Virus record (IMG/VR): IMGVR_UViG_2974796119_000001
Span: 1-64,000 of that record
Length of the DNA: 64,000 nucleotides
Source of the DNA: a virus
Lineage: Duplodnaviria; Caudoviricetes
Direction: 5' to 3' (one strand)
The position numbers and the translations under genes are program-made. The notes below the pieces were generated by a model, which ran no database searches, was not told where the DNA came from, and saw nothing but the letters and a program-made list of their open reading frames with translations. The stretch's first letter is position 1, and every line of letters begins with the position of its first letter. Shown in pieces: positions 1-46,100 of this stretch.

Positions 1-600
1 AGTATGTGCGCGTGGGGAGATTTTTCGTTTTGGCAATTGGTTTTCATTTATACACCCCCCTATTGATTTCGTTGCGAATGATTCATATTTTTGAACTTTT
101 ACCCCTCTGACAATGCTGTGTATGAAAATTAACCTCACTATGTATCGTATATGTTATTGTAGTGACGTTCTTTCGCTTGGTTTCTTTCGGTTGAGGTTAT
201 TATACTATCTATTGATACACTTACTTGTATTGTTAGCTCGTTCCTACTGCATCTTCTTTGCTTGGGTGGTACACTTATATAGTTGAATTGATTTTGTTCG
301 CTTAGAAGCGAGGATTTGAGCTAAACACCATTTAAAATAAAAGAATTGCAGTATTATCGTCATTTGCTGTTCTATTGTATTTGTTTGGTTATTGGTTTGC
401 GTTGTATTGTTGTCTTGTTATGTTGTCTTGGTACGGTGCAGGAAGTTTAGTTTGCTTAGTGTTTGCGGTGTGTTGTCGTTTTGGTGTGTGTTTGGTTTGT
501 TGGTTTTGGTTGGTCTAGTAGATTTATGTATCATAAGGAATGTTTATTCTTGTTATGTAGTACTATCGAATTTCTTTATAATGTAACATTTTTTTGTTTT
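1..600. other. Non-coding G/T-skewed region, candidate genome terminus/packaging region
   Basis: Composition is opposite to the A-rich coding strand elsewhere; no credible ORF; lies directly upstream of the first promoter. Confidence 0.45.
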
Positions 601-627
601 GTTACCTTTTTATCTATTTAAGTTACG

Positions 628-635
628 TATATTTG
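628..635 (+). promoter_or_regulatory. Bacteroidota sigma-A -7 box for the first early transcript
   Basis: TATATTTG matches TAnnTTTG, upstream of the first genes. Confidence 0.7.
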
Positions 636-636
636 T

Positions 637-710
637 AGAGTAGTTAGGAATTAGCATTGTTTATCTCTTAATTACTTAGTTCTTTGAAATCTTAAAGTAT
701 TAACTACTCT
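637..710 (+). promoter_or_regulatory. Structured 5' leader of the early transcript
   Basis: AGAGTAGTTA (637-646) pairs perfectly with TAACTACTCT (701-710), enclosing internal hairpins. Confidence 0.5.
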
Positions 711-786
711 CTAATATCGTGACTGCATAAGGTGTATTTATTAGAAGATTAGCCGACGGAACTGGCAAAGAGTTTATACAAAATAA

Positions 787-843
787 TAAGTGTAACGGTT
801 GCAGCCTTTAGGGGCTTGTTGAGGTTCGATTCCTTTGCACTTA
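787..843 (+). ncRNA. Mini-tRNA-like element 1 (acceptor stem + T-arm + one hairpin, no D/anticodon pair)
   Basis: TAAGTGTA/TGCACTTA stem; GAGG-TTCGATT-CCTT T-arm stacked on it; AGCCT-TTAG-GGGCT middle hairpin. Confidence 0.7.
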
Positions 844-886
844 CAAAAAACATAAATTAATAAAAACAACCTTAAATCAAATCATT

Positions 887-1018
887 ATGAAAGCAATTTT
901 TAACACAGTGAACAAATTAACATTAGAAAACAAATTAGCAATTTTGGCAATATCTTTTATTGTTTTTTTAGCAGTCAGCGTTTTAGTTGATGCAATAAAA
1001 AACGGAACACCTTTGTAG
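887..1018 (+). CDS. 43-aa single-pass membrane peptide (first gene)
   Basis: MKAIFNTVNKLTLENKLAILAISFIVFLAVSVLVDAIKNGTPL; preceded by the ACAACCTT leader motif; below ORF-track cutoff. Confidence 0.7.
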   Translation: MKAIFNTVNKLTLENKLAILAISFIVFLAVSVLVDAIKNGTPL

Positions 1019-1049
1019 TAAAGTATTAATAAATTTTAAACCTAAAAAA

Positions 1050-1265
1050 ATGAGATTAAATAGCAGTTTAGACATCAACGCAGTTACTTTATTAGATAAA
1101 GTAAAAATACTACTGGAACAGCCTTATAAATTAGTCTTAGTGCAACGCAACGAGCTAGAGCGTTTAAGGGTATCAGTTAAACGCTCAGAACAATCAGCCT
1201 ATATCAATAGTTTATATAAACATTACATAATAGATAAGAAAAATAAAACTTATTTATGTAACTGA
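1050..1265 (+). CDS. hypothetical early protein
   Basis: 71-aa ORF, A-rich initiation region. Confidence 0.6.
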   Translation: MRLNSSLDINAVTLLDKVKILLEQPYKLVLVQRNELERLRVSVKRSEQSAYINSLYKHYIIDKKNKTYLCN

Positions 1266-1283
1266 TTTTTTTAATCAAATTCA

Positions 1284-1334
1284 TTGCCTTGAAATATTCA
1301 ATGTTATTTATTCGGTTCGTTACCGACAAGGCAA
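1284..1334 (+). ncRNA. Mini-tRNA-like element 2
   Basis: TTGCCTTG/CAAGGCAA 8-bp stem; TCGG-TTCGTTA-CCGA T-arm; AAATA..TATTT middle hairpin. Confidence 0.7.
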
Positions 1335-1362
1335 CTAAAAAACAACCTTAAATCAATTTATT

Positions 1363-1812
1363 ATGAAAGAATATAAAACAGACACAAAGCAATTTACTTT
1401 AAAGAAAACAAAGTCTAATTTTAAACAATGCAAAATTAAAAGTTCGGCAGATGGTCGAGATTTTGCAGCTAAATTCTACCACGAAGACATTGCAGTTTTC
1501 GAAAGTATGTTCTGCATCTTCTTAAATAACGCAAACAATACTACTGGTTGGTGTAAAATATCGCAAGGCGGTTTATCAGGTACAGTAGTCGACCCTATTT
1601 TAATAGGCAAATATGCAATTGAATCACTTGCAAAATCAGTTATTTTGGTACATAACCACCCAAGCGGAACACTCAAGCCAAGTCAATCAGATTTGCAAAT
1701 TACTACAAAGATTAAAAAAACCCTTGATATTTTCGATTGTAAAGTTTTAGACCATTTAATTATGGTTGAAGGTGGTAATTACTACAGCTTTGCAGACGAA
1801 GGAATTTTGTAG
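1363..1812 (+). CDS. radC: RadC-like JAB domain protein
   Basis: ILVHNHPSGTLKPSQSD...VLDHLI JAB motif. Confidence 0.9.
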   Translation: MKEYKTDTKQFTLKKTKSNFKQCKIKSSADGRDFAAKFYHEDIAVFESMFCIFLNNANNTTGWCKISQGGLSGTVVDPILIGKYAIESLAKSVILVHNHPSGTLKPSQSDLQITTKIKKTLDIFDCKVLDHLIMVEGGNYYSFADEGIL

Positions 1813-1814
1813 TT

Positions 1815-2003
1815 ATGGAGTTACACAAATACTTATTTTTAAGAACTACAGACGGTATCTATATTTTTGATAGTAAAGACCAAGACATTTTTACAGAAAA
1901 TGACTCTATTGCCGTTTATTCTGAGCAAAACAAAACATTAAAATTTGCTAACAATTTAACTGCTGCAATCTATAAAGAACAGCTACTAACAATATTAAAC
2001 TAA
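1815..2003 (+). CDS. hypothetical protein
   Basis: ORF in operon packing. Confidence 0.6.
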   Translation: MELHKYLFLRTTDGIYIFDSKDQDIFTENDSIAVYSEQNKTLKFANNLTAAIYKEQLLTILN

Positions 2004-2025
2004 CAACCTTTTAAAACTTATCATT

Positions 2026-2304
2026 ATGGAAACAAATAACTTAATCGATTTACTAAAATATCAAGAATTTTTTAACACCAATTTAGAAGAGCTAACAACA
2101 CTAAATGAAGATGATGTTAATTTTATTAATCAAACTCATTTTGGCGATTTAATTGTCGAGGAATCTAATATTGATGGTGAAAGATACAATTTGTATCGTT
2201 CTTTAGATGAAAACGTTGCACAAGGCGAAGCACTAATACAAATAGAGCATAGCGGAAAAAACAATAATTACAGTTATGAAACTGTTTTAAACTTTTATCT
2301 TTAA
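2026..2304 (+). CDS. hypothetical protein
   Basis: ORF with ACAACCTT leader motif. Confidence 0.7.
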   Translation: METNNLIDLLKYQEFFNTNLEELTTLNEDDVNFINQTHFGDLIVEESNIDGERYNLYRSLDENVAQGEALIQIEHSGKNNNYSYETVLNFYL

Positions 2305-2316
2305 AAAATATATACC

Positions 2317-2559
2317 ATGGCACAAACACAATACGCACAAGATTTAGCGAAGCAATACGAATTAGGAAACACCAAAGAAGATTTTTATCAATATATAGTT
2401 AATTCTATGGAAAACGGACAAAGACAACAAGTTCGGAAGTTATTCGGGGAAATGGACAACCACGACAAACAAGAATTTTTAACTACTTGGCTAGACCCTC
2501 GTAATAGAGGAATACATAAAAGTACTTTAAACACTTGTATAATTGAACTTTTAGATTAA
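2317..2559 (+). CDS. hypothetical protein
   Basis: ORF in operon packing. Confidence 0.7.
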   Translation: MAQTQYAQDLAKQYELGNTKEDFYQYIVNSMENGQRQQVRKLFGEMDNHDKQEFLTTWLDPRNRGIHKSTLNTCIIELLD

Positions 2560-2563
2560 AAAA

Positions 2564-2641
2564 ACTCGTTCGGGCGAGTATAAAAAGAGATTAAGCCCGA
2601 AGCGTCTCGCCAGTCTTAGGGGTAATTTTGGCGGGGGTTCT
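2564..2641 (+). ncRNA. Pistol self-cleaving ribozyme (predicted cut G2637/U2638)
   Basis: P1 ACUCG/CGAGU; loop UUCGGG pseudoknots with CCCGAA; AUAAA linker; P2 AGA/UCU; UUAAG...GCG core; P3 UCUCGCCA/UGGCGGGG; GU cleavage dinucleotide. Confidence 0.92.
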
Positions 2642-2661
2642 AAACTAAAAAAAATAAAATT

Positions 2662-2958
2662 ATGAATGTTTTAAACACTTGGCAAAGCGATAGCACAAAA
2701 AAAGTATTTTTTAATGTTTCAAATCCTATTTACACAAATGGAGAGTATAATATTTACAAGGAACACAGTAAATGTTTTCTGCATACATATAAAAATATAG
2801 CTATTAACCAGTTATGCGCACCAAACAAAGAGCATATAAAAAACTTAATAAATAATACTAGACCGCTTACAAATACAAAATACACGCCTAAAACACTTAT
2901 TTATGATAGGTCAAAAGAAGCAATAAAAAAAGGTTTAACTATTTTAAAAAACTATTAA
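2662..2958 (+). CDS. hypothetical protein
   Basis: ORF directly downstream of the ribozyme. Confidence 0.7.
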   Translation: MNVLNTWQSDSTKKVFFNVSNPIYTNGEYNIYKEHSKCFLHTYKNIAINQLCAPNKEHIKNLINNTRPLTNTKYTPKTLIYDRSKEAIKKGLTILKNY

Positions 2959-2961
2959 GCA

Positions 2962-3258
2962 ATGAAGAAACTGAATACAGCGGATTTTTTAAAAGAAGTA
3001 AACACGGATTTTAATTTTAAAAGTTTCGGTCCTAATGATTTTATAAAAAAAGAATTTATAAAAATTGAAGATTTAACACCAAATCAAGAACATATCGAAC
3101 TAAACACATTAACCGAAAAAATAAAAGGTAAAAATCTGACTGTTCCGCACGTTCTATTGTATAATGATAAAAAAATACTAATAGACGGACACCATACGGT
3201 TATAGCTAAGTTGTTAAAAGGACAATCTAAAATTTTGTGTAAAATAACAATCAGATAA
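2962..3258 (+). CDS. ParB/Sulfiredoxin-like domain protein
   Basis: LTPNQ...VLL...LIDGHHT motif. Confidence 0.7.
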   Translation: MKKLNTADFLKEVNTDFNFKSFGPNDFIKKEFIKIEDLTPNQEHIELNTLTEKIKGKNLTVPHVLLYNDKKILIDGHHTVIAKLLKGQSKILCKITIR

Positions 3259-3283
3259 TAAAATATTGCTAAGGGGTTAGTAA

Positions 3284-3329
3284 TGGCGTGAAGTATTTAG
3301 TACTTATTCGGAGCGATACCGACACGCTA
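3284..3329 (+). ncRNA. Mini-tRNA-like element 3
   Basis: TGGCGTG/CACGCTA stem; AAGTA-TTTAG-TACTT hairpin; TCGG-AGCGATA-CCGA T-arm; same layout as element 2. Confidence 0.7.
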
Positions 3330-3354
3330 ACAAAAAAACTTTAAAAATTACAGA

Positions 3355-3648
3355 ATGAAAACAGGAACTAAATTTTATATTGAATTAATAGTTGATAGCT
3401 CAACCGTAAAAAATACAGATATAAAAACAGCTTTAAGCATTAAAATAAGTAGTTTAAAAACAGCTTTAAATGGTGAGGGTATAGAAATATACGAGTATAT
3501 AAAAGAAAGAGTTTTGTTTTTTGGCAAAGATGAACAAATTAGGCAAAAAATAAAACTAATTTTATCTAAACCATTAACAAAAAACAGCATTTACAAAGTT
3601 ATTAATTCTGTAGAGGCTCAACCGTTAAATTTTAAAGAATTAAACTAA
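3355..3648 (+). CDS. hypothetical protein
   Basis: ORF track. Confidence 0.65.
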   Translation: MKTGTKFYIELIVDSSTVKNTDIKTALSIKISSLKTALNGEGIEIYEYIKERVLFFGKDEQIRQKIKLILSKPLTKNSIYKVINSVEAQPLNFKELN

Positions 3649-3665
3649 TAAAAACTTGTAATACT

Positions 3666-4037
3666 ATGAACTGTTTATTTGAACACTACACAGAACAACC
3701 AAAAAAACTAAAGAAAATAACCTCTAAATGGGGTGATAAACTAGAAAGTAAAGGATGTAAGTACAAAAAATGCGCGAAGTTCTTAGAGGCAATAAATAAA
3801 ATCGGCTACACATTTGAGTTCGGCTTAGATGCACAACCTTTTCTTTTGCGTCTAATGAACGAGGACGAAAGACACGAGTACATAAACGAATACGGTAATA
3901 ATTTCGATTTGTATCTATTGGAAGATACCGTTGTAAAAGTAGGTAAAAACCAATACAAGAACCAAGAAACACAGCACAAAAAAACCTTTACTAAAAAGGA
4001 ATTAAAACAGTTTTTTAAAAAAGAATATCAAAATTAA
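3666..4037 (+). CDS. hypothetical protein
   Basis: ORF track. Confidence 0.7.
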   Translation: MNCLFEHYTEQPKKLKKITSKWGDKLESKGCKYKKCAKFLEAINKIGYTFEFGLDAQPFLLRLMNEDERHEYINEYGNNFDLYLLEDTVVKVGKNQYKNQETQHKKTFTKKELKQFFKKEYQN

Positions 4038-4042
4038 AAGCC

Positions 4043-4210
4043 ATGGAACTAATTAAGCTAACAGCAGAAAAGCACAACGGCAGTACTTTTTTCAAAGATG
4101 CCAACGGAAAATTAAAAGGAGTAATTCCACCCGAACAAAAACAACCTAATAGAAATACTAAATTTTACACTCTTAATTGCTGCTTATTCGCCATTAATTG
4201 GATTAATTAA
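4043..4210 (+). CDS. small hypothetical protein (55 aa)
   Basis: Fills the gap in-operon; translated by hand. Confidence 0.55.
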   Translation: MELIKLTAEKHNGSTFFKDANGKLKGVIPPEQKQPNRNTKFYTLNCCLFAINWIN

Positions 4211-4221
4211 TATATTTTTTC

Positions 4222-4496
4222 ATGATTAATTTACAAGAAGTCAGAAACATAAAAAAAAAAACATCGTTTTAATTAATGGAGTAAACCACCTTTGTACAAT
4301 GGTTCAAGGTTATGCAAACAACCCAAACAAAAATTTTAGATTTACAAATATGAACCTATCTAAAAAAATAAGACATTCGGTATATAATGAATATTACTAC
4401 AAATGCAAAGACTTGCAAAAAGACATTGAAGAAAAAAAAATAACTTTTTTAGTAATTGGAGCAAATCAAAAAAATTTACAATTAGCTCTATTTTAA
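4222..4496 (+). pseudogene. Frameshifted ORF across an A11 tract (4251-4261)
   Basis: MINLQEVRNIKKK ends in the A-run; one extra A would fuse it to the 4299-4496 frame (about 91 aa). Confidence 0.5.
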
Positions 4497-4533
4497 AACA
4501 AACTAAAAAACACCCTAAAAAATCACAAATTAA

Positions 4534-4720
4534 GTCCCCTCGCATTAACCATTTTTTTAGGTTGGTTAGTTTTGTGGGGGGACAATATTAATTCAATACT
4601 CTTTTTTTATGCTTACCTCATCAATGCGGGTAGCATAAAATAGTATTAACAAAAAATAAACTAATTCCTGGAGGATTATAAAAAAGCAACTCATTTTTAA
4701 ACTGCTTTTTTCTCCTTGGG
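4534..4720 (+). promoter_or_regulatory. Three tandem long imperfect hairpins (RNase III-like sites or structured RNA)
   Basis: GTCCCC..GGGGAC (4534-4583); AATACT..TTTTATGC..GCATAAAA..AGTATT (4595-4647); GGAG..AAAAAGCA..TGCTTTTT..CTCC (4667-4720). Confidence 0.6.
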
Positions 4721-4739
4721 CAAAACACCTTTTTAAATC

Positions 4740-4979
4740 ATGGATAAACTAATTAAAGAGCTTAGAGAAGCTAAAAAATCAAAAATATCTAGTTGGATTG
4801 ACTCTGTTAGTATCAGAATAGAAAAAATGGAATTGTTTTTTAAAACAGCTTCTAAAGTGGGTTTAATTAAAGATGGTTTTTATATAAGTGGAATACCTAA
4901 AGGAAGTGAAGAGTATATAAACGATTTTTATAAATTAGAGAATGAACTAGAATACCCAAAACCTCAAAAAATTAACTAA
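4740..4979 (+). CDS. hypothetical protein
   Basis: ORF track. Confidence 0.65.
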   Translation: MDKLIKELREAKKSKISSWIDSVSIRIEKMELFFKTASKVGLIKDGFYISGIPKGSEEYINDFYKLENELEYPKPQKIN

Positions 4980-5000
4980 AAAATAAACTCTTTTTAAATT

Positions 5001-5324
5001 ATGAATACTTTACAAACTCAATTAGAAACAGTAGCAAAATTCGCAGGATTTACCCACGAAAAAAACTTAGATTGGCATGATAACGAAATGATGATGAAAC
5101 AGAGAATTTATGACGCAGAAGGCGGTAACTGTTTTGATAAGCTTTTATTTTCGGAGTCTTGGGATTGGATTATTCCAGTAGTTAAACTATGTGAAGAAGT
5201 ACAAGATTCTAAAAGCGGTAATTTGCTAGGAGACATTACACACGCTTTACTTGATTTTGATATTGAAAAAACATTTGAAGCAGTAGTTAAATTCATTGAA
5301 TGGTATAACCAACAAAAAAAGTAA
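5001..5324 (+). CDS. hypothetical protein
   Basis: ORF track. Confidence 0.7.
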   Translation: MNTLQTQLETVAKFAGFTHEKNLDWHDNEMMMKQRIYDAEGGNCFDKLLFSESWDWIIPVVKLCEEVQDSKSGNLLGDITHALLDFDIEKTFEAVVKFIEWYNQQKK

Positions 5325-5326
5325 TT

Positions 5327-5770
5327 ATGAAAAAAGAACAAAAAAATAACTGCAAAGCAGTACAAGTAAATCACCCTCTAGACCCTATAGAATGGAATTG
5401 TGACTGTAAAGAAGCTGAAAATGGAGAACCATGTTCTTTTAGTTGGATTCAAACAGACGGAAGTATAAATACCTTGCAATACGGAAGGAAAATGAGTTTT
5501 TTTTCTTGGGAATACTCAGAAATAGGCGGGCAATATACTGACGAAAAAGAAGCTGAAAAAAACAAACATAATTGGAGTTCTAAAATTATTGATTTACATG
5601 ATTACTCAAAAGAAAAAGTAGAAAATATAATTTCGTCTTGGGGTTACTCTATAATAAACTACGATTTAGAAAACAGAAAAATAAAAATAAAACAAGAAGC
5701 CGAAATATTCAATATAAATGATTCTATACAATTAATTTGTGAATGTATTTCTGAATACGAACACTATTAA
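5327..5770 (+). CDS. hypothetical protein
   Basis: ORF track. Confidence 0.7.
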   Translation: MKKEQKNNCKAVQVNHPLDPIEWNCDCKEAENGEPCSFSWIQTDGSINTLQYGRKMSFFSWEYSEIGGQYTDEKEAEKNKHNWSSKIIDLHDYSKEKVENIISSWGYSIINYDLENRKIKIKQEAEIFNINDSIQLICECISEYEHY

Positions 5771-5784
5771 AAAACAAACCAACC

Positions 5785-5961
5785 ATGAACCAACTATTTT
5801 TAACACTAAGAGCAAAAAAAATTATGTTTTCTTTTGAACGCATAGAAGGAAAAGTAACCAAAATTACAAACATAGAATTAACTAAAGACGGACGAACTCA
5901 TTTAGCTAACGGCAGAATAGTATCTAAAAACTTATACAACGAACTTTTAAAAATAAACTAA
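5785..5961 (+). CDS. small hypothetical protein (58 aa)
   Basis: Fills the gap; translated by hand. Confidence 0.55.
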   Translation: MNQLFLTLRAKKIMFSFERIEGKVTKITNIELTKDGRTHLANGRIVSKNLYNELLKIN

Positions 5962-5963
5962 TT

Positions 5964-6191
5964 ATGGCAGATTTTTACAGCATAAACGGATATTGGAAAG
6001 ACGACAAAACAGAATTTAAAGAACTTATAGTTTCAGAAATGGACGGCTGCTTTGAAGGAATAGAACCTTACAGCGATGATGATATTTTCTTTTACGGTTT
6101 AAGTGAATCTAATTTATTAGAAGCAATCGAGCTAAAAGAAGAAACAGCACATGATTTTGTTATAACATCATTCACTAAAATAATTCAATAA
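5964..6191 (+). CDS. hypothetical acidic protein
   Basis: ORF track. Confidence 0.65.
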   Translation: MADFYSINGYWKDDKTEFKELIVSEMDGCFEGIEPYSDDDIFFYGLSESNLLEAIELKEETAHDFVITSFTKIIQ

Positions 6192-6433
6192 TGAAAACAA
6201 CTAAAAGAATATTCAGATTCATTGGAAAGTTGCTTTTATGGATTTTTTACCTAATAATAACAGGTAAAGAAAGACAAATGTATCAACATGCAAAGTATGC
6301 AAAAAGAGCTGTTAAAAGTGTTAAAAATGACCTTTTCGGAACCACCTATATTATGGGTGAATACTTAGGCAATAAAGAACCTGAAAGAAACTTTTTAACA
6401 TGGAAAGAATTTAGAAAACAACATAAATTTTAA
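6191..6433 (+). CDS. hypothetical protein with hydrophobic N-terminal segment
   Basis: Translational coupling; FIGKLLLWIFYLII segment. Confidence 0.6.
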   Translation: MKTTKRIFRFIGKLLLWIFYLIITGKERQMYQHAKYAKRAVKSVKNDLFGTTYIMGEYLGNKEPERNFLTWKEFRKQHKF

Positions 6434-6437
6434 AATT

Positions 6438-6581
6438 ATGATAAAAGTATATTTTGAGTCAAGAAACCATGCGGAATTAGTAGCCACTTTTGAAACCGAT
6501 GAATTATATAATCTTTGCTTGCCTATATTAGAAGCAGCAGCAGGAGAACAAGGAATGATAGTAACCGAAAAAATAGAATAA
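6438..6581 (+). CDS. small hypothetical protein (47 aa)
   Basis: Fills the gap; translated by hand. Confidence 0.55.
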   Translation: MIKVYFESRNHAELVATFETDELYNLCLPILEAAAGEQGMIVTEKIE

Positions 6582-6584
6582 TAA

Positions 6585-6896
6585 ATGGATAACTCATACT
6601 ACATAATAACAAGCGAAGCAAATAGAACAGTTTTTTGTTCAGATAATTTTAGTAAAATAGAAGCTTTTATCAAGGAAAATCAAGATGCAAGGGTAAGAAC
6701 TGTAAATTATACTGGGAAGCCTAAAATAATGAGCAAAGAGCTTTTTTTAATAAAGTTTTTAGCTTTTACCCAAAACAAAGAAAAGTTTTTTATGCTTACT
6801 AGAATTATGATTGAAGCAAGAACAAAATTTGCTGCTTTTATGAGTATGAATCAACTATTAGAAGAGTGGAAAGAATTTAAACGTGAATTTTTATAA
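6585..6896 (+). CDS. hypothetical protein
   Basis: ORF track. Confidence 0.65.
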   Translation: MDNSYYIITSEANRTVFCSDNFSKIEAFIKENQDARVRTVNYTGKPKIMSKELFLIKFLAFTQNKEKFFMLTRIMIEARTKFAAFMSMNQLLEEWKEFKREFL

Positions 6897-6906
6897 ACCA
6901 TAAACC

Positions 6907-7065
6907 ATGTCCCCGGAAAACTTTTTAAAAACAGATGAAGCAAAAAAATGCAAAAATGTAGCTTTTACAAGTGATGAAAAAAAAGTAATTCATACATGGA
7001 TGAAGCAATACGCAAAACACATAATTAAAGAAGACCAAAAAGCAAAAAGACAATGTTCGCAATAA
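6907..7065 (+). CDS. small hypothetical protein (52 aa)
   Basis: Fills the gap; translated by hand. Confidence 0.5.
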   Translation: MSPENFLKTDEAKKCKNVAFTSDEKKVIHTWMKQYAKHIIKEDQKAKRQCSQ

Positions 7066-7310
7066 AAACAGAATCAGGAACCTTTAAAACATTCAACGTA
7101 AAAAAGATATACGAAATCTTAATGAAAACCCAAGACAAAGAAATTAAACACTTCTTTGATTTTGAATTATACACACAATCTGAGTTTTTTAAGACATATT
7201 TAAGAATATCAAAAAACTACGAAAATTACCTAAATTTAGAGAAAAAGTTTAACCCGCACCCAACATTAAAAGAATATGCAGACAAATTCAAGGTCAAAAA
7301 AAAGATTTAG
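7053..7310 (+). CDS. hypothetical protein
   Basis: ORF track. Confidence 0.6.
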   Translation: MFAIKTESGTFKTFNVKKIYEILMKTQDKEIKHFFDFELYTQSEFFKTYLRISKNYENYLNLEKKFNPHPTLKEYADKFKVKKKI

Positions 7311-7761
7311 TGAGGTAATTCAGGAAATGTTCAAAACATTTGGCGAAAATAATATCACTTTAGATGAAATTTCAAAATCTACGAAAATAGATAAAGAGTT
7401 TTTATTGATGCTTTTAAATAATGAAGGTCAGATGGTGGAGAATATTTCAAGACTGATCCAATTCGCTAATTTAAGATTAACACTTGTGAAATATAAAATG
7501 AAATTTCACACTACATACCACGTTTCAAAAGATGTAATAATGTTTTGCAGAATAGTAGAACCTAAATGTAATATATCTTATGATAAAATAACTGGTGAGT
7601 TTTTTAATCTTAACTTCAAAAGAAAAAGAATAGAAAAAAAACTATCTACTATTGAAAAACAACAAGTTTTAGCCGACTTTAAATCGTTTAAAGAAACCCA
7701 TATAGATAAACTCTATGATGAAAAATTTATGCAAAGGATAAATCAATTGAATAGCGTGTAG
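7276..7761 (+). CDS. hypothetical protein, possible N-terminal HTH
   Basis: ITLDEISKSTKID...ISRLIQFANLRL resembles an XRE-type HTH; true start may be internal. Confidence 0.5.
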   Translation: MQTNSRSKKRFSEVIQEMFKTFGENNITLDEISKSTKIDKEFLLMLLNNEGQMVENISRLIQFANLRLTLVKYKMKFHTTYHVSKDVIMFCRIVEPKCNISYDKITGEFFNLNFKRKRIEKKLSTIEKQQVLADFKSFKETHIDKLYDEKFMQRINQLNSV

Positions 7762-7822
7762 TTTTTTACACAAAAACATTACATTTACAACCTCAAACAA
7801 CAATCTTAAATCAAAACAAATT

Positions 7823-8638
7823 ATGAAAATAGTAGGAAAACAAGAAGCAACAAAACAAATTGATAAAATATTCGGGATATTCACTAACAGCTTATCTAAG
7901 ATAAGACCTCATTTCGTATTAACTGGACCAAGTGGAAGCGGTAAAAGTGTAACCATAAAAGCTATGGCTAAAAAACATAAAGTAGGTTATTTTGAAATAA
8001 ACGCTGCTCAATTAACTAAAGAAGGCACTAGCGGTAACAGTTTAAGCAAAGCTTTAACACCTTTATTAAACCACGGAGGGAAACCAACAGTTTGTTTTGT
8101 TGATGAATTTGATAAATTATTTATTTCTGGTAATTCAAATTCAGAATTAGCCCATGAAAGCACTAACGGAGTTCAAAACGAGTTCCTGAAAGTATTAGAA
8201 AGCGATACAGCAACAGTTTTTGGAGATTACGGTAAATATGTAGAGGCATCCGCTTCCAACATCTTATTTATCTTTGCAGGAGCCTTTAATGGGGAAGAGG
8301 ATATTGATATTGACAGATTACGTGACTTAGGTATTAAAACTGAATTTCTAGGTCGTGTAGGATTAGCTTACAACCTTACAAAACTAACTTTAGATGATTT
8401 ATTTGAGATTTTAGACCACTCAGAATTGTTAGAAACTTACTTAGAACTATTTACTGATTCTGATAAAGAAAAAACAGTATTAGAAATAAAAGCCCACCTA
8501 CAAAAAATATATCCAAACAATACTTTGGGAGCTAGAATTATAACATCATTAATTAATCAGTATTTTATTAATGGAGGGTTAACAGAAAAAGAAGTTAAGC
8601 AAATCACATTTCAAAATAAAATGAAGTTAAAAGATTAA
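7823..8638 (+). CDS. ClpX-like AAA+ ATPase (no Zn-binding domain, no IGF loop)
   Basis: Walker A GPSGSGKS, Walker B FVDEFDK, VQNEFLK, ILFIFAGAF, TEFLGRV parallel ClpX motifs. Confidence 0.8.
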   Translation: MKIVGKQEATKQIDKIFGIFTNSLSKIRPHFVLTGPSGSGKSVTIKAMAKKHKVGYFEINAAQLTKEGTSGNSLSKALTPLLNHGGKPTVCFVDEFDKLFISGNSNSELAHESTNGVQNEFLKVLESDTATVFGDYGKYVEASASNILFIFAGAFNGEEDIDIDRLRDLGIKTEFLGRVGLAYNLTKLTLDDLFEILDHSELLETYLELFTDSDKEKTVLEIKAHLQKIYPNNTLGARIITSLINQYFINGGLTEKEVKQITFQNKMKLKD

Positions 8639-8658
8639 ACCATGAAAACAATAGAAGT

Positions 8659-8907
8659 ATGCAGGACAGAAACAAAAAACTAAAAGACAGAGTAATTAAT
8701 TGCAGAGAAAAATTAAGCAATTTAGAGATTAAAAAACCTCTTGTTAAATTCGCTAGGAAGTATCCAAGATATGTAAAAGGATCAACTTCTAAAGAAAAAG
8801 AAAAGTCTAAAACAAGGCTTAGAAATCTTTTTTACTGTAAAGCTTTCGATGAAGATTTTACAAAACATTTAGAAGTATTCGTAGAAATAACTAAAACAAA
8901 TAACTAA
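8659..8907 (+). CDS. hypothetical basic protein
   Basis: ORF track. Confidence 0.6.
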   Translation: MQDRNKKLKDRVINCREKLSNLEIKKPLVKFARKYPRYVKGSTSKEKEKSKTRLRNLFYCKAFDEDFTKHLEVFVEITKTNN

Positions 8908-9626
8908 TGGAGTCACCTGAAATTTCAAAACTTTTTAAAAAATATAATCTTACTAAAGACGACTATTTTAAACACAAACATTATCAAATAATCACTAGAA
9001 GCGGGATGGATAAAATCCAAGCTATAGAGAAAATATTTATTGAATATGAAGTTATTGCTGCTGTTCCTAAATATTGTGCCGTAAAAGCTAAAGCCAGTAA
9101 AGATAATGCTAAGATAGAAACTTTCGGAAGTGCTGTTTATGGTGGTAAAGAATGGATTACTTTCGATAAACCCACTCAACAAGGTAAAACAGGTAAATGG
9201 ATAGAAAACGGAAATACAAATACATGGTACGTTTTAGAAGTTGCTGAAAAAAGAGCTATGAGTAGAGCTGTTTTAAAATTAACTGGTTTTTATCAACTTG
9301 GTGTTTTTGGAGAAGATGAAAGTGAAGATTTTAAGAAGGAAACAACACCACCTGCAAAAACAACACCAACACAACCAGTAAAAGAACCAGTAAAACAAAC
9401 ACAACCTTTAGCACAGCAAACAACACCTACTCCTAAAGCTATAAAACCTTTACCAAGATTAGTAGAAAAATCAGAGTCATGGGAAAAGATGGTTGTTTTA
9501 ATAAACACAGGAATATTAACCTCTATAACTCAAGTAGAAGGTAAATACTCATTAGAGCCAGTAGCAAAAGCTAAAATTATTAAGATTATTAAAGACTATA
9601 AACCTAAAAAAGAAGCTAAAAACTAG
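8907..9626 (+). CDS. Putative single-strand annealing protein (Rad52/Sak-like)
   Basis: VAEKRAMSRAVLK...EDESEDF core followed by a P/T/Q-rich tail. Confidence 0.55.
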   Translation: MESPEISKLFKKYNLTKDDYFKHKHYQIITRSGMDKIQAIEKIFIEYEVIAAVPKYCAVKAKASKDNAKIETFGSAVYGGKEWITFDKPTQQGKTGKWIENGNTNTWYVLEVAEKRAMSRAVLKLTGFYQLGVFGEDESEDFKKETTPPAKTTPTQPVKEPVKQTQPLAQQTTPTPKAIKPLPRLVEKSESWEKMVVLINTGILTSITQVEGKYSLEPVAKAKIIKIIKDYKPKKEAKN

Positions 9627-38572: not shown

Positions 38573-40108
38573 ATGGCAAACGGAGCAGCAGCAGCATACA
38601 AACAACTACAACCTATTAAGCCTATTCAAACTGGAGCTATAATAGAAGAGCATATTAGGTATTGGAAAAAATATGATGATGCTAAAGATGCAGCGGATAA
38701 AGCAAGAAAAGCTAAAGAAGCAGAAGCTTTAGGGAAACAAAAAGCAGAAGCTTTTAAATTGTATTCTGGATTAACTCCAGAAGAAAACCAAGGATTTTTA
38801 AATTCACAGATTATAGGTAATTTTGAGAAGCATAAAAGCGAATATGCTGAGTTGGCAAAAAAAGCATCAAGAGGTGATGTAGATGCAAGGCTTAAACTAC
38901 AAAATATAAAAAATAAAATTGACAACATAACCAAAGCTAATAAAGTTTATGGTGAAAAAGCAGTAGCATTAGCAAAACAAAAAGCAGAAGGAAATTATAA
39001 TGAATACATAGATAAGCCTATTGAAGATTTTGGTAATGCAACCAGTAAAGGAATGTACAAGGTTAACGATGATTGGAGTATGGATATGTATGACCCAACT
39101 TCTAATGAAGTGAAAAAAGTGCCTTCAGGAGCTTTGTTAAGTAATGAATACTTAAACGCTTCTTATAATAAAGCACCACAATTTCAAACAAATGGGCCTT
39201 TAATCGCAAAAACATTATTAGATACAGCAGACGGTCAAAAATTAATTGATTCTGACACAAAAGTAAAAGGAACTCGATTAGTTAAAAACTTATTCGCTCA
39301 AGACCCAACAGAAGCAATAAGTTGGTACGGTAAATACATGAAAGAGTTAGGTGTTGATTCTTATCAGCAAAAACCTTTTTCACAGCTTTCAGATTTAGAA
39401 GCAAATATTATTGCAGAATCATATTACAATCAAAATGTATTACCAAGAATACAAGAAGTAACTAAAGACACTACTTTAGATGATGCTAATAAAAAAGCAG
39501 CTTTAATCAATAAACAACTTGAGGCTAAAAAGAAAAGATTAGCTATTAGAAAATCCAACAGAAAAGATACTGCAAATATAATTACAGTAGCTACAAATGA
39601 AAAAGGAGATATTTTAAAGGGTCTACAGGCAGAATACCCAACAACAGCTATAAGCCCAGATTCAGAAATTTATATCGTAGGAAACAACGGTGTAAGCTTA
39701 AAAGATGTTAAAGGAGATAAAGAAACTGAAAGTACATTAACTAATTTAGTTATTGAATCTAATGGTGATGTTGTAGGTTTAGCTAAAAAAGTAGTTAAAA
39801 CACCAATAAGAGATTCAGAAGGCGATCTTACAGGTAAATTCGATGAAGAAATAGTAGATGAAGTAATTACTAATAAAAACGAGTTAAATAAGTTTGCTAC
39901 AATTATAGAAAAAGACAATGGTAAAAAGCATAAAAACTTAAAGCAGCTTGTTAATACTATGGCAAAAGCAAGAGCTGAAGTAGCACCTAAAGTTGAAACA
40001 ACTAGAGAAATAGTACAGCCAGAACAACCAACAACAAGAACAACAACTCAGGAAACTAAAGAAGCTAGAATCGCTAGAATGAGAGCAGCTATTAAAGGAG
40101 ATCAATAA
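38573..40108 (+). CDS. Internal virion/ejection protein
   Basis: 511-aa helical protein between the small and giant cargo genes. Confidence 0.6.
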   Translation: MANGAAAAYKQLQPIKPIQTGAIIEEHIRYWKKYDDAKDAADKARKAKEAEALGKQKAEAFKLYSGLTPEENQGFLNSQIIGNFEKHKSEYAELAKKASRGDVDARLKLQNIKNKIDNITKANKVYGEKAVALAKQKAEGNYNEYIDKPIEDFGNATSKGMYKVNDDWSMDMYDPTSNEVKKVPSGALLSNEYLNASYNKAPQFQTNGPLIAKTLLDTADGQKLIDSDTKVKGTRLVKNLFAQDPTEAISWYGKYMKELGVDSYQQKPFSQLSDLEANIIAESYYNQNVLPRIQEVTKDTTLDDANKKAALINKQLEAKKKRLAIRKSNRKDTANIITVATNEKGDILKGLQAEYPTTAISPDSEIYIVGNNGVSLKDVKGDKETESTLTNLVIESNGDVVGLAKKVVKTPIRDSEGDLTGKFDEEIVDEVITNKNELNKFATIIEKDNGKKHKNLKQLVNTMAKARAEVAPKVETTREIVQPEQPTTRTTTQETKEARIARMRAAIKGDQ

Positions 40109-43100
40109 TGGGAAAACAACAAACTCAACCAACATATTTAAGTCAAGAAGAATATGATAAAAAACTTGACACCGAAATATCTACTTTAATAGATCAAGAT
40201 TTTGGTGATGAAGATATAAAGCTATATGGTGAAGACTTTAAATCAAGATATGCCGTAAAAAAAAAAGACGAAGAAGTTACGTCACCAGATTTACAATTGG
40301 ATGGGGAAAAAGATGTTACCACTTCTACTTCGGTTGGAGATCAGTCGATTCCGACTAATGGGCCTACACCAGAAGATATTATTCAAGCTTTAAGAGATAC
40401 TGGATATACTGATGAACAAATTAAAGTTCAAAGAGAGTCAATGCAACAAGAACCTCTAGGAACTATAAAAGAACCTTTTAAATTCGAAAAGGAAGAACAA
40501 CCTTTAGCTGAAAGATCAGGTTTGCCCGGTTTTGAAGGTAAAGTATCAGCAGCAGAAGTAGATGTTGATGTATCAGAATTACAACCACAGATAAACTTTG
40601 CTCAAAAAGAAGAAAGTCTTAACGCATTTAAGCAATTAAAAGATAAAGGTGAAATATCTGAAGAACAGTATAAAAATTTCGAGAAGATAATAACCGATCC
40701 TACTAAGAAAAAAATAGCTGAATTTGAGAAGTTAAAAGAACAATACAATCCTCAAAGAATGATTGACTTAACTAATAAGTTTAAAGAATCAGGTGTTTTA
40801 TCTAATCAAGAAATAGGTTCTATAGATAAAGAAATAGATAGGAAACGTAGAGGCGATTTTACTTTTTTAGAAAAAGCAAAAATTGCGTTAAATTTCGATA
40901 GTGAAAGAAATATTAAAAACATTAATATAAACGACAGAAATTCAGTTGTAGCCAATGCGGTTCGCCAAAAGCAAGCGGACTTTATGAGTGGTTTAGATAA
41001 TGATGAAAGGTTGTTGTTTGAATCTTATTTAGTAAAAAGAAATGAAAAACTATCTGAATCTGTAAAAACCGCAGAGAATTTTAACGATAATATTGTTAAA
41101 ACAGCTTTACCAAGCGAAGTAAGTAAATTAAGAGCTTATGATGCTGAAATGTCTAAAATAACATCTAAACCTAGAAATCAACTTACTCAAGAAGATACAC
41201 AAAATTATAACGAACTATTAACCAAAAGAAAACAGCAGGAAGGTGTTATTAATTCATTAGGCGAGCAATACGAAGCGAACAGAAAAACAATGCTAGATAA
41301 TAGCGATGATTTAATGCAGTTTAATGATGAATTGGACTTAGCTAAAAGAGATTATAGTTTTTATACAAATAGAGTAAAAGCTATTGATAGAGGATTCCAA
41401 TTTTTAGTAGAAAATGCCGTTTCTTTTACCGGTAATACACTTGTTACAATAGCAAAAGAAGTTCCAAGAGTAAGATTAGCCGTTGGTGATGAGAAATTAC
41501 AAAAAGCCCAAGATATTTTTAACGCTTGGCAAATTAACATTGCAGAAACAAAAGAAAAGTTTGAAGCAGGTAAAGGTATTAGTAAAAGTTTTGCTGACGT
41601 AAAAGGTGTTAAAGATTTTGGAACCTATGTTGCTGATTTATTTACAGACCAAGTGCCAATTTTAGCAACAATATACGCAACAGGTGGAGCAGGATTATAT
41701 ACCGTTGCAGCATCTTCTGGAGGGGAAAGAACAGGGCAATTATTAAAAGAAGTAAAAGAGGGTAAAAAAGATTATACTCAGCAAGAAATAATCGGTAATG
41801 GGTTATTATATGCCGGTGGAGAATTTATTGGAGAAAGAATAACTTTAGGTATCATGAATGATTACCGTAGGTTACTAAACACGGTAAATAAATCTGGAGC
41901 AGCTAAAACATCTTTCAGAGAAGGGTTTAAAAATCAAATTAAAGGAACTATAAAAGGAGTATCTACAGCGAACAAAGAAGGTTTATCGGAAGTTTATACC
42001 GAGTTCTTTCAGTTATTAGCTGATAATGCTCAATTAGACGAAAAAAGGTCAAGCCAGTTCTTAGAATCATACGTAGGTGGTTTTGTAATGGGTAAAGGTA
42101 TGCACGTTGCAGGAACTATACCTAACATGGCTTTAGGTTCGTATAGTAAATATGCCAACAGACAGCAAGTAGAAAAAACTACAAGACAAATAAACGAGTA
42201 TCAAAAAGTAATAGCCAAAGGTGATTTAAGCGATGCTATAAAATTAACTTATCAGAAAAAAATAACTGACTTAATAAATAAAAACGAAAATACCATAAAC
42301 CAATCGGTAGATGCTATTCAAAATTTAGATTCAAGTCAATTAAAAGAAGTTACAGGTATTAACCAACAATTAATAGAACTTCAAAAAGCATTAGAAAAAG
42401 ATAATCCAAAAGAAGTTAAAGATGCTTTAGGAGCAGAGATAAAACAATTAAGCGATAGTAAAGATAAAATGTTATCAAGTCCTCAGGAACAATTAGAGGT
42501 ATTACCTGATAATGGAGTTGCATTAAAAGAAGAAGCTTCTAAAATACTTACAAAAGAAAAACAAGATTCAGGAGCAAAAGAGTTTAAAATATCTGACACC
42601 GAAATAGCTTTTAAAGCAGCAGAGCTTTTAAATAAACAAGAAACAGAGGATGCAGGTATAAAAGTAGAAAAACCTAAAAACGATGTTTCTAAAAGCACAA
42701 TGGATTTTGTTGAAGGCTTAGGTGTATTAAAAGATGTTTCTGCTTTTGTACCAAAATCAATAAAGGTAATTGTTGAAGACGCTAGTGCAATGATCGGTGA
42801 AACCGACAATGGAAACATATTTTTAGAAACAATTTATGTTCCAACAAAATCAAGAGGTCAAGGAAAAGCCAGTAAAGTACTAGATTCTTTAACCGAAAGA
42901 GCAGACGAACAAGGAAAAACTATTGAGTTGGTAGCAGCTCCAATGGACGCTACAACAGATTTCAATAAACTTGTAAAACTTTACGAATCTAAAGGTTTTG
43001 AAAAAGGTCCTAGATTCACAGAAGATACAGGTAACATGATAAGAAAACCTAAAACTGATGATGCTTTTTCAGGTATTGATATTGCGTTGGCAGAAGCCCC

Positions 43101-46100
43101 AACTGAGGTAGCTACAGAGGTGGTCGTTCCGGCCACCCCAACGCCTGTTAAAAGAACAACTGAATTTAAACCGGAAATTACAGTAGAAACAAAATCAAAC
43201 AACTATGATGTTTCTATTGTTAATGGAGAATTACAGATAAAAGCTAAACTTGGTGAGCCTAAAATTTCAACAAGTGAAAGGGCAAAAATAGTTAGTGAGT
43301 ACATTAATAATACAGATTTTTCAAAAGGACCAACAGCTAGTTTTGAAGGAAAAGGTAGTTTGTCAGATACTCAACAATCTCAGGTTATCGCTAATGAAAG
43401 TAACAATCCATTGGAAATTGCTCAAGAAATTGTACGCGTACAAAACGCATCTACTGAAAGAATACAGCAATTAGAAACGACAAAAGACGATGCTATTGCC
43501 AATGTGTTAAAGTCATACGCTTTAAATAAAGATGCTAAGAAAGAAGTAACCGATTTAGGTAGATATTACACAAATAAAGCTAATAAGCAAAAGAACCCTA
43601 TCAGTATTGATAAAGCAAGGGAATTAGCGCAAAGTGAATTAGGAGCAGAAGTTTCATTTCAAGAGGTTTTAGATTTCTTAGAAAACAACCCAAGTATTGC
43701 ACAATACAACGAAAGCTTATATGAATCAATTCCCGAAATAGCAGATTTAAAGAACAAGTTCAAAGAATTAACCGGATTAGAAGCTACAGATAAAATATTA
43801 AATAAAGTAGTAGAAAAACAAGGAGAAGTTACGGAAGAAACAACGGAAGAAACAACAGAAGATACTACTGATGAAGTTCCTTTTCAACTAGAAAGTAAGC
43901 AAACAAAAATTGCAGGAGCAGAATTAGGTGGACTAGTAAATAGATTAAAGAAAACTGGATTAGCTGATGATGTTAGAATATTATCGGATGCACAAGCACA
44001 AAAAATACTTTCAGAAATTAAATCTGGAGAAGCAGTTACTCAAACACCAAATGGGTTTATTTACAATAACATTGTTTACCTAAACAGAGCTAAAGTAAAA
44101 ATAGACACGCCTATACATGAGTTTGGGCATTTATGGAGCTATTATATCAAAGAAATCAATCCTGATGTTTATCAAAAAGGGTTAAACTTAATTGAAAATA
44201 GTGAATATCATAATGATATTAAAAACAACTCTTTGTATGATAATCTTACCGAAGAACAAAAACTTGAAGAAGCATTAGCACAAGCTATTGGTGAAAAAGG
44301 TGTTAAGATTTTAAATGAAGCTAAAAAATCTAAATTCTCTACCTGGTTCAAAAATTTATTCTCAAAAATTGCACAAGGATTAGGGTTAAGAAATATTTCT
44401 GGAAAACAATTATCAGAAATTACACTTGAAAAGTTTACAGATTTAGCAAGTGCTGAATTATTATCAGGAATTGAAATTGTAAAAGGAAAGGCCCCGAAAC
44501 CGACAAAAAGTGAAATTGCCGATGTAAACCAAATAGATGTTATCGTATCTGAAAGACAAGCTATCATAAAAGAACGTCAAAGATTAAAAGAATTAGTTAA
44601 TTCTAAGAAGACAGTTACCGAAGCTGTAAAAAAGGAACTTGTAAAATATATAAACTCGCAACTAGATAGCCAAAAGTTATCTCAGGCAGGTAAATCTGAT
44701 GTTACAAGACTTTTAAACACTGTTAGAGCAGCTAAGACTAAAACCAATTTATTAAGAGCTTTTGAACAGGTTAATGAAGTCTTCACTAAGTTGGAAAACA
44801 AAGTGTTATTCAAAGGAATAAACGATATACTTGACAAGAAACTTTCAAAAAAAGAAAGCGGTAGAAGAAAAGCTAATTTAGTTACTGAGGAGGTTGAAAC
44901 TATATTAAGAAGCGTAAAGGAAAACATTAAAAACATACCTAAAGACGTTACTGTTCCTGCAAAAAGAAGTACTAAAAACAGAATAAATGAATATTTAGTA
45001 GAGCTTTTTGAAAAACGAGACAGTATTTTATCAAAAGAAAATCAAACTGATTCTGATTATATAGAGCTAGAGTCTTTAGTTATATCTATTGATATTTTAA
45101 CTGGAATAACAGCGGAAAACTCAAATACTACTAATGAAAATTTTACTGAAAGTTTAGGTAATTTAGCTTCAATATATGAAAACGGAAGAAGTCAATTAAA
45201 AGAACTCAGAGATCAAAGAAAAGAACAAGACCAAGAATTAATAGACGATATAATTAATGATGTAAATCCGGAAGGAATAACTACCATAAAAACTGAAAAA
45301 GAAATTAACGCTGAAAGAAAAAAAATAACTAATGGATTAAATCGATTAATATTTAATGCAGGTTCAGGATGGTTTACAGGAAACCTAGATAGTATAATGA
45401 GTATCATTTCAAGAAGAACAGGTGAAAGCCCATTGACTAACCTTGTTAGTGAAATGAAGAGTAAAGAAACCGGTAAAAAAAGAAGAACTAATTTATTCTC
45501 AAATAGAGTAAATCAAGCTCAGGTGGATTTATTTGGTTCTTTAACAAAAGCAGATATAGCTTTAAATAAAATAAACGAAGTAACTGTTTCAAGACAAGCT
45601 GTAGGCACCGATATTAATACACCTAAATCTCAACAAGAATTGCCTTTTTCTAATTCACAGTTGTTGAATTTATGGATGAATAACCACAACTCTAAACTTC
45701 AAGCGGGATTAGAAGCAAATGGTTTTGACGCTAAGTTTTTTGAAAAGGTAAATAAAGTATTACCATTAAAAGTAAAAGAATACGGTGAATCATTATTTGA
45801 TATTTATGATGAATTACATATTGAAGCGGATCAAGTTTACAAAGAAATGAATTTTCACTCAATGGGTAAACAAGATTTCTATGCAGGAAAAGTTTACAGA
45901 AGTGATTTTGAAACAAAACCAGATGAATTAAAAATAGATTCAGGTAACTTCAGTATAAACAGCACAGGTTTTGGTAGCCAAAAAGAACGTACCGCAAATG
46001 ATAAACCTATTGAAGCTTCAGATGTAAACACACTTGTATTACGAGCTATTCAAGAAACTTCACATTATGTAGCTTTTGCGGAAGTTCATAGGAAATACGC

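Follow-up and report, generated by a model that had tools for sequence, protein, structure and literature searches.

A canonical, probably active pistol ribozyme between two small genes of a flavobacterial-type phage

A canonical and probably active pistol self-cleaving ribozyme is located between two small genes at the left end of a phage genome (Duplodnaviria, Caudoviricetes). The DNA analysed, hereafter "the window", consists of the first 64,000 nucleotides of the IMG/VR virus record IMGVR_UViG_2974796119_000001. Judging from its sequence and surroundings, the likeliest role of the ribozyme is the cutting of a polycistronic early transcript, and we consider it probable that two cistrons are uncoupled in this way. 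An Rfam cmscan of the whole window matches the pistol family (RF02679) at window 2564-2642 (+), a stretch of 79 bases, with 65.6 bits and an E-value of 1e-9. The gathering score that defines family membership is 34.5 bits. The match is full-length (model positions 1-68 of 68), it is the sole above-threshold Rfam family in the window, and it recurs when the virus record is searched over its full 78,833 bp, while a search of 14 control genomes with RF02679 gave no match. A permissive Rfam scan of window 1-9000 returned the pistol again and, beyond it, sub-threshold noise only; therefore, the early region holds no second known ribozyme class. No other Rfam ribozyme is found in the 78.8-kb genome, of which the permissive E-value scan covered window 1-9000. 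An initial annotation, made from the letters alone, had recognised a pistol between two early genes and had proposed a search with the Rfam pistol model; that search, run here with cmscan, gives the significant match above and confirms the identification. The annotation had delimited the element as 2564-2641. Its start is exact and its end falls one base short of the Rfam match, the sole discrepancy.

The structural elements of the ribozyme, position by position, are the following.

2564-2642 (+): complete pistol self-cleaving ribozyme (RF02679, model positions 1-68)
2564-2579 (+): P1 hairpin, 5 bp, ACUCG 2564-2568 pairing with CGAGU 2575-2579, read from the sequence
2569-2574 (+): P1 loop UUCGGG, the 5' strand of the pseudoknot, read from the sequence
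2580-2586 (+): A-rich linker AUAAAAA, which fits the upper-case consensus AUAAAnA of the Rfam alignment
2587-2590 (+): 5' strand of P2, GAGA, from the sequence and the Rfam alignment
2591-2604 (+): catalytic-core strand, with the upper-case consensus positions all retained
2591-2595 (+): UUAAG, within the catalytic-core strand
2596-2601 (+): CCCGAA, the 3' strand of the pseudoknot, within the catalytic-core strand
2602-2604 (+): GCG, within the catalytic-core strand
2605-2636 (+): P3, a stem of 8-9 bp with a loop of 14-16 nt, from the Rfam alignment and the minimum-free-energy fold
2637-2638 (+): predicted scissile G-U junction, cut G2637/U2638, from the 2-nt P3-P2 junction of the Rfam alignment
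2639-2642 (+): 3' strand of P2, UCU(A), from the sequence and the Rfam alignment

The pseudoknot (UUCGGG 2569-2574 with CCCGAA 2596-2601) forms six Watson-Crick pairs out of six, and as the covariance model cannot score a pseudoknot, this perfect pairing brings independent support. P3 is closed by the conserved wobble U2605.G2636. In P2, A2588-U2641, G2589-C2640 and A2590-U2639 are paired, and G2587 stands opposite A2642 (G.A). The predicted cleavage site obeys the rule of the class, a 2-nt P3-P2 junction that is usually G-U (Harris 2015, PMC4604425). The cut that had been predicted earlier, at G2637/U2638 and 24 nt 5' of the ATG at 2662, fits this junction in the Rfam alignment. Outside the helices, the conserved unpaired nucleotides (AUAAA..A linker, UUA.GC, AGCGU) are identical to the upper-case consensus in the cmscan alignment. 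The only departures from this consensus, U2570 and A2600, face each other in one pseudoknot pair and read as a compensatory change, such as the initial annotation had described for the pseudoknot. All pistol elements that it listed are present in the sequence and in the Rfam alignment, and its assignment of G2602 as the equivalent of G40 holds, in the numbering of env25.

That the element is instead an inactive relic, a chance match or a minus-strand terminator, with no working ribozyme, is scarcely credible. A consensus scan does call a terminator-like site at 2579-2564 (-), made of the complement of P1 and the adjacent T-run, and the minimum-free-energy fold of the 79-mer is no better than that of shuffles (z -1.15). 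The latter value is uninformative against a ribozyme, because minimum-free-energy folding cannot represent the pseudoknot. The terminator was rejected: it is the complement of P1 beside the A-run 2557-2563, the genes of the region are all on the + strand, and there are no - strand genes nearby. A chance match or relic was likewise rejected on the E-value, on a score nearly twice the Rfam cut-off, and on the intact conserved unpaired nucleotides and pseudoknot, the latter unscored by the model.

The fold is maintained across divergent phage pistols. Pistol cores were collected from IMG/VR with a degenerate pattern, yielding at least 120 contigs, and 70 phage pistols were aligned: 65 non-identical IMG/VR copies, the window copy, and four of the five copies of the sister phage G001 (see below). 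Because MAFFT misaligned the 3' halves of pistols, covariation was counted for P1 and the pseudoknot only, and P2 and P3 were handled with a parsing script. In this alignment, 96.9% of the P1 and pseudoknot cells are paired, with changes on both sides at 10 of their 11 pairs: double changes occur at all five P1 pairs, and covariation at five of the six pseudoknot pairs. None of 500 shuffles reached the observed level, and pairing dropped to 29-40% when the partner columns were slid by 1-3 positions. The window copy is paired at all 11 positions. Of the 73 phage pistols parsed, 70 have a P2 of exactly three canonical pairs with an additional G.A or G.G; as the parser required the three inner pairs, the actual finding is that a fourth P2 pair is rare. 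The initial annotation was thus right that P2 is only 3 bp long (three pairs plus G.A); this is no weakness, since it is the usual form.

The virus record is 78,833 bp long, complete, bounded by 322-bp direct terminal repeats, and has 30% G+C. All ORFs assigned to a PHROG or Pfam family are on the + strand; small ORFs without assigned function (at positions 0.1-7.7 kb) come first, followed by replication genes and then by virion genes. The left-end genes may be called early from their position and size. The host probably belongs to the Flavobacteriia, as suggested by the portal relatives and the scarcity of Shine-Dalgarno-like motifs. All 85 cultured phages with a detectable portal relative (~26% identity) infect Flavobacteriia (Flavobacterium, Cellulophaga, Maribacter). 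A Shine-Dalgarno-like 4-mer is found upstream of only 4 of 86 ORFs, and A occupies position -3 in 80%, features that fit Bacteroidetes initiation (Baez 2019, PMC6847099). The earlier label of a "flavobacterial-type phage" is thereby borne out, if indirectly. At the nucleotide level, the first 8 kb have no match among cultured phages, and a single-sequence terminase scan of IMG/VR found nothing; relatives in IMG/VR were reached via a two-sequence portal alignment. The small left-end genes also include one for a RadC-like JAB-domain protein (window 1363-1812, PF04002, E 7e-33), a family often encountered among anti-restriction genes carried by mobile elements. Immediately 5' of the terminase gene, window 40108-47556 encodes a 2,482-aa protein without PHROG match, which could be a giant virion protein or a polymerase as in crAss-like phages.

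The pistol lies in a gap of 102 nt (2560-2661) between two + strand ORFs.

2317-2559 (+): upstream ORF, 80 aa, stop codon TAA at 2557-2559, ending 4 nt before P1
2638-2661 (+): A-rich leader of the predicted 3' product, 24 nt, read from the sequence, with A at -3
2662-2958 (+): downstream ORF, 98 aa, from the ORF list, ATG at 2662

The upstream ORF has no Pfam or PHROG family match. A search of 5.8 billion proteins retrieved only two homologues of the downstream ORF (69% and 57% identity); in both contigs, this ORF abuts the preceding ORF, and neither a pistol nor any Rfam family is found there. That the two 98-aa ORFs after the ribozyme might be paralogues was rejected by comparison. The first 63 nt of the downstream message (window 2638-2700) are essentially unstructured (centroid 0 kcal/mol). 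Sigma-70 and Bacteroidetes-type promoter patterns occur at a frequency not above chance, and no promoter was placed upstream. Co-transcription of the 80-aa and 98-aa ORFs is assumed from the packing of the genes.

In the role that we favour, the small genes close to the left terminal repeat would be read into a long + strand transcript that includes the pistol. Folding of P1, the pseudoknot, P3, and P2 would allow G2637 to attack its own phosphate through its 2'-OH. The upstream message, comprising ORF 2317-2559 and anything 5' of it, would then terminate in a 2',3'-cyclic phosphate, its 3' end capped by the compact ribozyme body, and the downstream message would begin with a 5'-OH at U2638. 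Because P2 has only three pairs, the 3' product would fall away, and its release would leave a 24-nt unstructured, A-rich leader before the ATG at 2662, the kind of leader used by Bacteroidota ribosomes instead of a Shine-Dalgarno site. The net effect of such cleavage in vivo would be to uncouple the stability and the translation of the two cistrons. For the pistol class, Harris 2015 (PMC4604425) reports cleavage at ~10 per min in physiological Mg2+, by internal transesterification at G-U, and PMC8782182 names a 2',3'-cyclic phosphate and a 5'-OH as the products. Clustered ribozymes processing long phage transcripts have been proposed for hammerheads (Perreault 2011, PMC3088659); a 2019 review (PMC6765202) restates this transcript-processing idea and calls the function unproven. 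Against a transcript-cutting role stand the presence of a single pistol here, most junctions of the genome being devoid of one, and the lack of a pistol in distant relatives and beside homologues of the downstream gene.

The succession of a stop codon, a pistol, a leader of ~25 nt, and an ATG is recurrent in IMG/VR, where it is observed in dozens of phage contigs. Gene context was recorded for 66 non-identical phage pistols, a sample that was not thinned and is not phylogenetically independent. In this sample, the ATG of the next ORF is found 17-54 nt after the cut in 40 of the 59 pistols having a downstream ORF. Without a Shine-Dalgarno motif, the mode of the cut-to-ATG distance is 24-26 nt (14/26), a range that includes the 24 nt of the window copy. 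This spacing of ~25 nt may perhaps be just the minimum distance of a folded RNA from the ribosome-binding region, with no cut end required. On the upstream side, 37 of the 38 stop codons recorded overlap P1 or are no more than 15 nt away from it (4 nt in the window copy).

Such packing has a bearing on the possibility that cleavage is conditional and works as a translation-sensing switch, a ribosome terminating the upstream ORF covering P1 and part of the pseudoknot loop. The stop codon that ends 4 nt before P1 in the window, and within ~10 nt of it or overlapping it in most phage pistols, is what this explanation would predict, but simple genome compaction predicts the same packing. Furthermore, pistols are fast (~10 per min; Harris 2015, PMC4604425), and the full ribozyme is made only once the polymerase is 80 nt past the stop codon. 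We therefore regard a switch of this kind as very unlikely, and keep cutting of the early transcript as the preferred role.

A sister phage (G001, IMGVR_UViG_3300033186_000013; 75,756 bp, complete) is collinear with the window phage, with portals 56%, terminases 49%, and the 2,482-aa proteins 50% identical. It possesses five above-threshold pistols, all on the + strand and within 3.4 kb spanning its ends, i.e., in its early region.

359-426 (+): G001 pistol, Rfam-level
1221-1291 (+): G001 pistol, Rfam-level
1975-2041 (+): G001 pistol, Rfam-level
74399-74466 (+): G001 pistol, Rfam-level
75152-75216 (+): G001 pistol, Rfam-level

Its ORF map places the start of four of these five pistols directly at a stop codon or immediately behind it; in three of the four, the distance from the end of the pistol to the following ATG is ~20 nt. 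Between the pistol at 1221 and the next start there is a second structured stretch, ~95 nt long. None of the small genes beside the G001 pistols has a homologue in the window phage, and no pistol is found in five relatives that are more distant (portal identity 25-27%, completeness 91% or more). Other phage contigs carry two to four pistols 370-1,500 nt apart: L077 (IMGVR_UViG_3300027043_000028) at 322-1925, L105 at 4604-6700, and L076 at 3361-3883. Neighbouring pistols of L077 are near-identical, downstream leader included, which suggests that they are duplicated "pistol plus leader" units.

Pistols are also found in cultured phages.

KC821608 20369-20436 (-): pistol of Cellulophaga phage phi19:3, 46.5 bits, flanked by gp046 and gp045 within a series of small genes on the - strand
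KC821622 19461-19528 (-): pistol of Cellulophaga phage phi46:3, 46.5 bits
MT362618 66346-66418: pistol of Microcystis phage MaeS, 68 bits, 50 nt upstream of an "antirestriction protein" gene

No pistol was found in phages elemoF, Calle_1, phi38:1, and phi18:3. Pistols are absent from the features listed for the viewed stretches of the phi19:3 and MaeS records. By these matches, pistols of flavobacterial phages are already present in public genomes (phi19:3 and phi46:3). The initial annotation had taken the copy in a flavobacterial-type phage operon, with its clear context, as a hint at its biological role. The weight given to this context does not stand: the layout is common in IMG/VR phage contigs, cultured Cellulophaga phages carry pistols, and the frequent location of pistols near phage genes was published in 2015 (Harris et al. 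2015, PMC4604425).

The homologues of the downstream ORF that have no pistol, together with the lack of shared flanking genes between G001 and the window phage, indicate that the ribozyme is not tied to particular genes, a property also reported for phage hammerheads (Perreault 2011, PMC3088659). These same two observations would suit an active ribozyme that is mainly a passenger, carried along in small gene cassettes or spread among the early regions of phages by duplication and recombination, its conserved 5' half serving as a shared recombination site without benefit for expression. The patchy distribution among relatives and the near-identity of copies within a contig such as L077, leader included, speak for it as well. 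However, the catalytic and structural positions are all kept, with compensatory changes across very divergent copies, which implies purifying selection on the fold and not merely on a DNA repeat. In addition, the strand and the position relative to the ORFs are almost invariant. A mere passenger thus appears unlikely, and transcript cutting is retained as the main reading.

The window pistol belongs to a known class, and both the ribozyme and its setting are unexceptional. Weinberg et al. 2015 is reportedly the reference for the pistol self-cleaving class, and crystal structures exist for the env25 pistol. The element order is that of the class (P1, pseudoknot, AUAAA linker, P2, UUA(A/G)GC...AGCGU core, P3, 2-nt G-U junction), all its conserved nucleotides are present, and the location beside phage genes is as described for it. 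Trivial differences are the UUCGGG/CCCGAA pseudoknot, the C-G pair of which is common to 12 of the 70 phage copies, and the P3 loop of 14-16 nt, longer than the consensus; the probable host is a member of the Flavobacteriia, not of the Firmicutes. The pistols of phi19:3, phi46:3, and MaeS share with it a score above the cut-off, a position between small genes on the coding strand, and a distance of a few tens of nt to a start codon. The hosts of the two Cellulophaga phages are Flavobacteriia, like the host proposed here, although the cultured pistol phages are only distant relatives of the window phage (portal ~26% identical).

A comparable arrangement is known in the early mRNA of phage T7, with intercistronic RNase III sites where a host enzyme acts on a hairpin, and in RiboJ, a synthetic ribozyme insulator derived by engineering from a hammerhead. 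In these systems too, an intercistronic cut gives each message defined ends and a leader; the window RNA, in contrast, is natural and is predicted to cut itself. A precedent for the proposed role is that of the phage hammerheads, for which cutting of long transcripts into shorter messages was already published in 2011 (Perreault 2011, PMC3088659). Those self-cleaving RNAs likewise lie on the coding strand, amid small phage genes that are not conserved, and are clustered in prophages, flanking single genes or short gene blocks. They belong to another ribozyme class, and the window phage has one copy only, its other gaps holding other folded elements. Several ribozymes per transcription unit, as in the hammerhead arrangement, are thus found in G001, with its five pistols, and not in the window phage.

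Taken alone, the window pistol has little weight, being one more canonical pistol in a class common near phage genes. Its value is that of a pointer. The layout is also found in phi19:3 and phi46:3, cultured phages with growable hosts, in which the proposed role could be tested directly: the cutting of early polycistronic RNA into messages with short, defined leaders, in hosts whose translation does not rely on Shine-Dalgarno sites. The five-copy sister phage and the tRNA-like elements residing with the pistol add to this value.

These small tRNA-like folds are found in gaps of the same gene run as the pistol.

787-843: tRNA-like fold, 3' edge 43 nt before the next ATG
1284-1334: tRNA-like fold, 3' edge 28 nt before the next ATG
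3284-3329: tRNA-like fold, 3' edge 25 nt before the next ATG

Each comprises an acceptor-like stem of 7-8 bp, one hairpin, and a T-arm-like hairpin, and none matches an Rfam family. A 14-base pattern for the element gave mostly chance matches in IMG/VR; of the 15 that survived a filter on the stem, only 11 look genuine. Other IMG/VR contigs, including L187, L192, L228, and L242, share this architecture, and their acceptor stems differ in sequence yet remain complementary. In the pistol-bearing contig L006, a tRNA-like element is located at 7379-7424, ~750 nt downstream of the pistol and on the same strand. These folds look like a real, undescribed RNA family.

In the window phage, three of the four elements have their 3' edge or cut site at a distance of 24-28 nt from the ATG, a spacing that fits the idea of different folded elements filling one intercistronic slot. 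It is conceivable, though we hold it only tentatively, that pistols and tRNA-like elements are exchangeable "punctuation marks", placed so that processing leaves ~25 nt of structure-free leader for translation without a Shine-Dalgarno site. In that case, the ribozyme would carry out unaided a step for which the tRNA-like elements depend on the host RNase P or RNase Z. The window phage, with one pistol and three tRNA-like elements, and G001, with five pistols, offer a natural experiment on the interchangeability of these elements. The same gene run also includes a 243-nt gap (window 4497-4739) that has no above-threshold Rfam match and contains three long hairpins.
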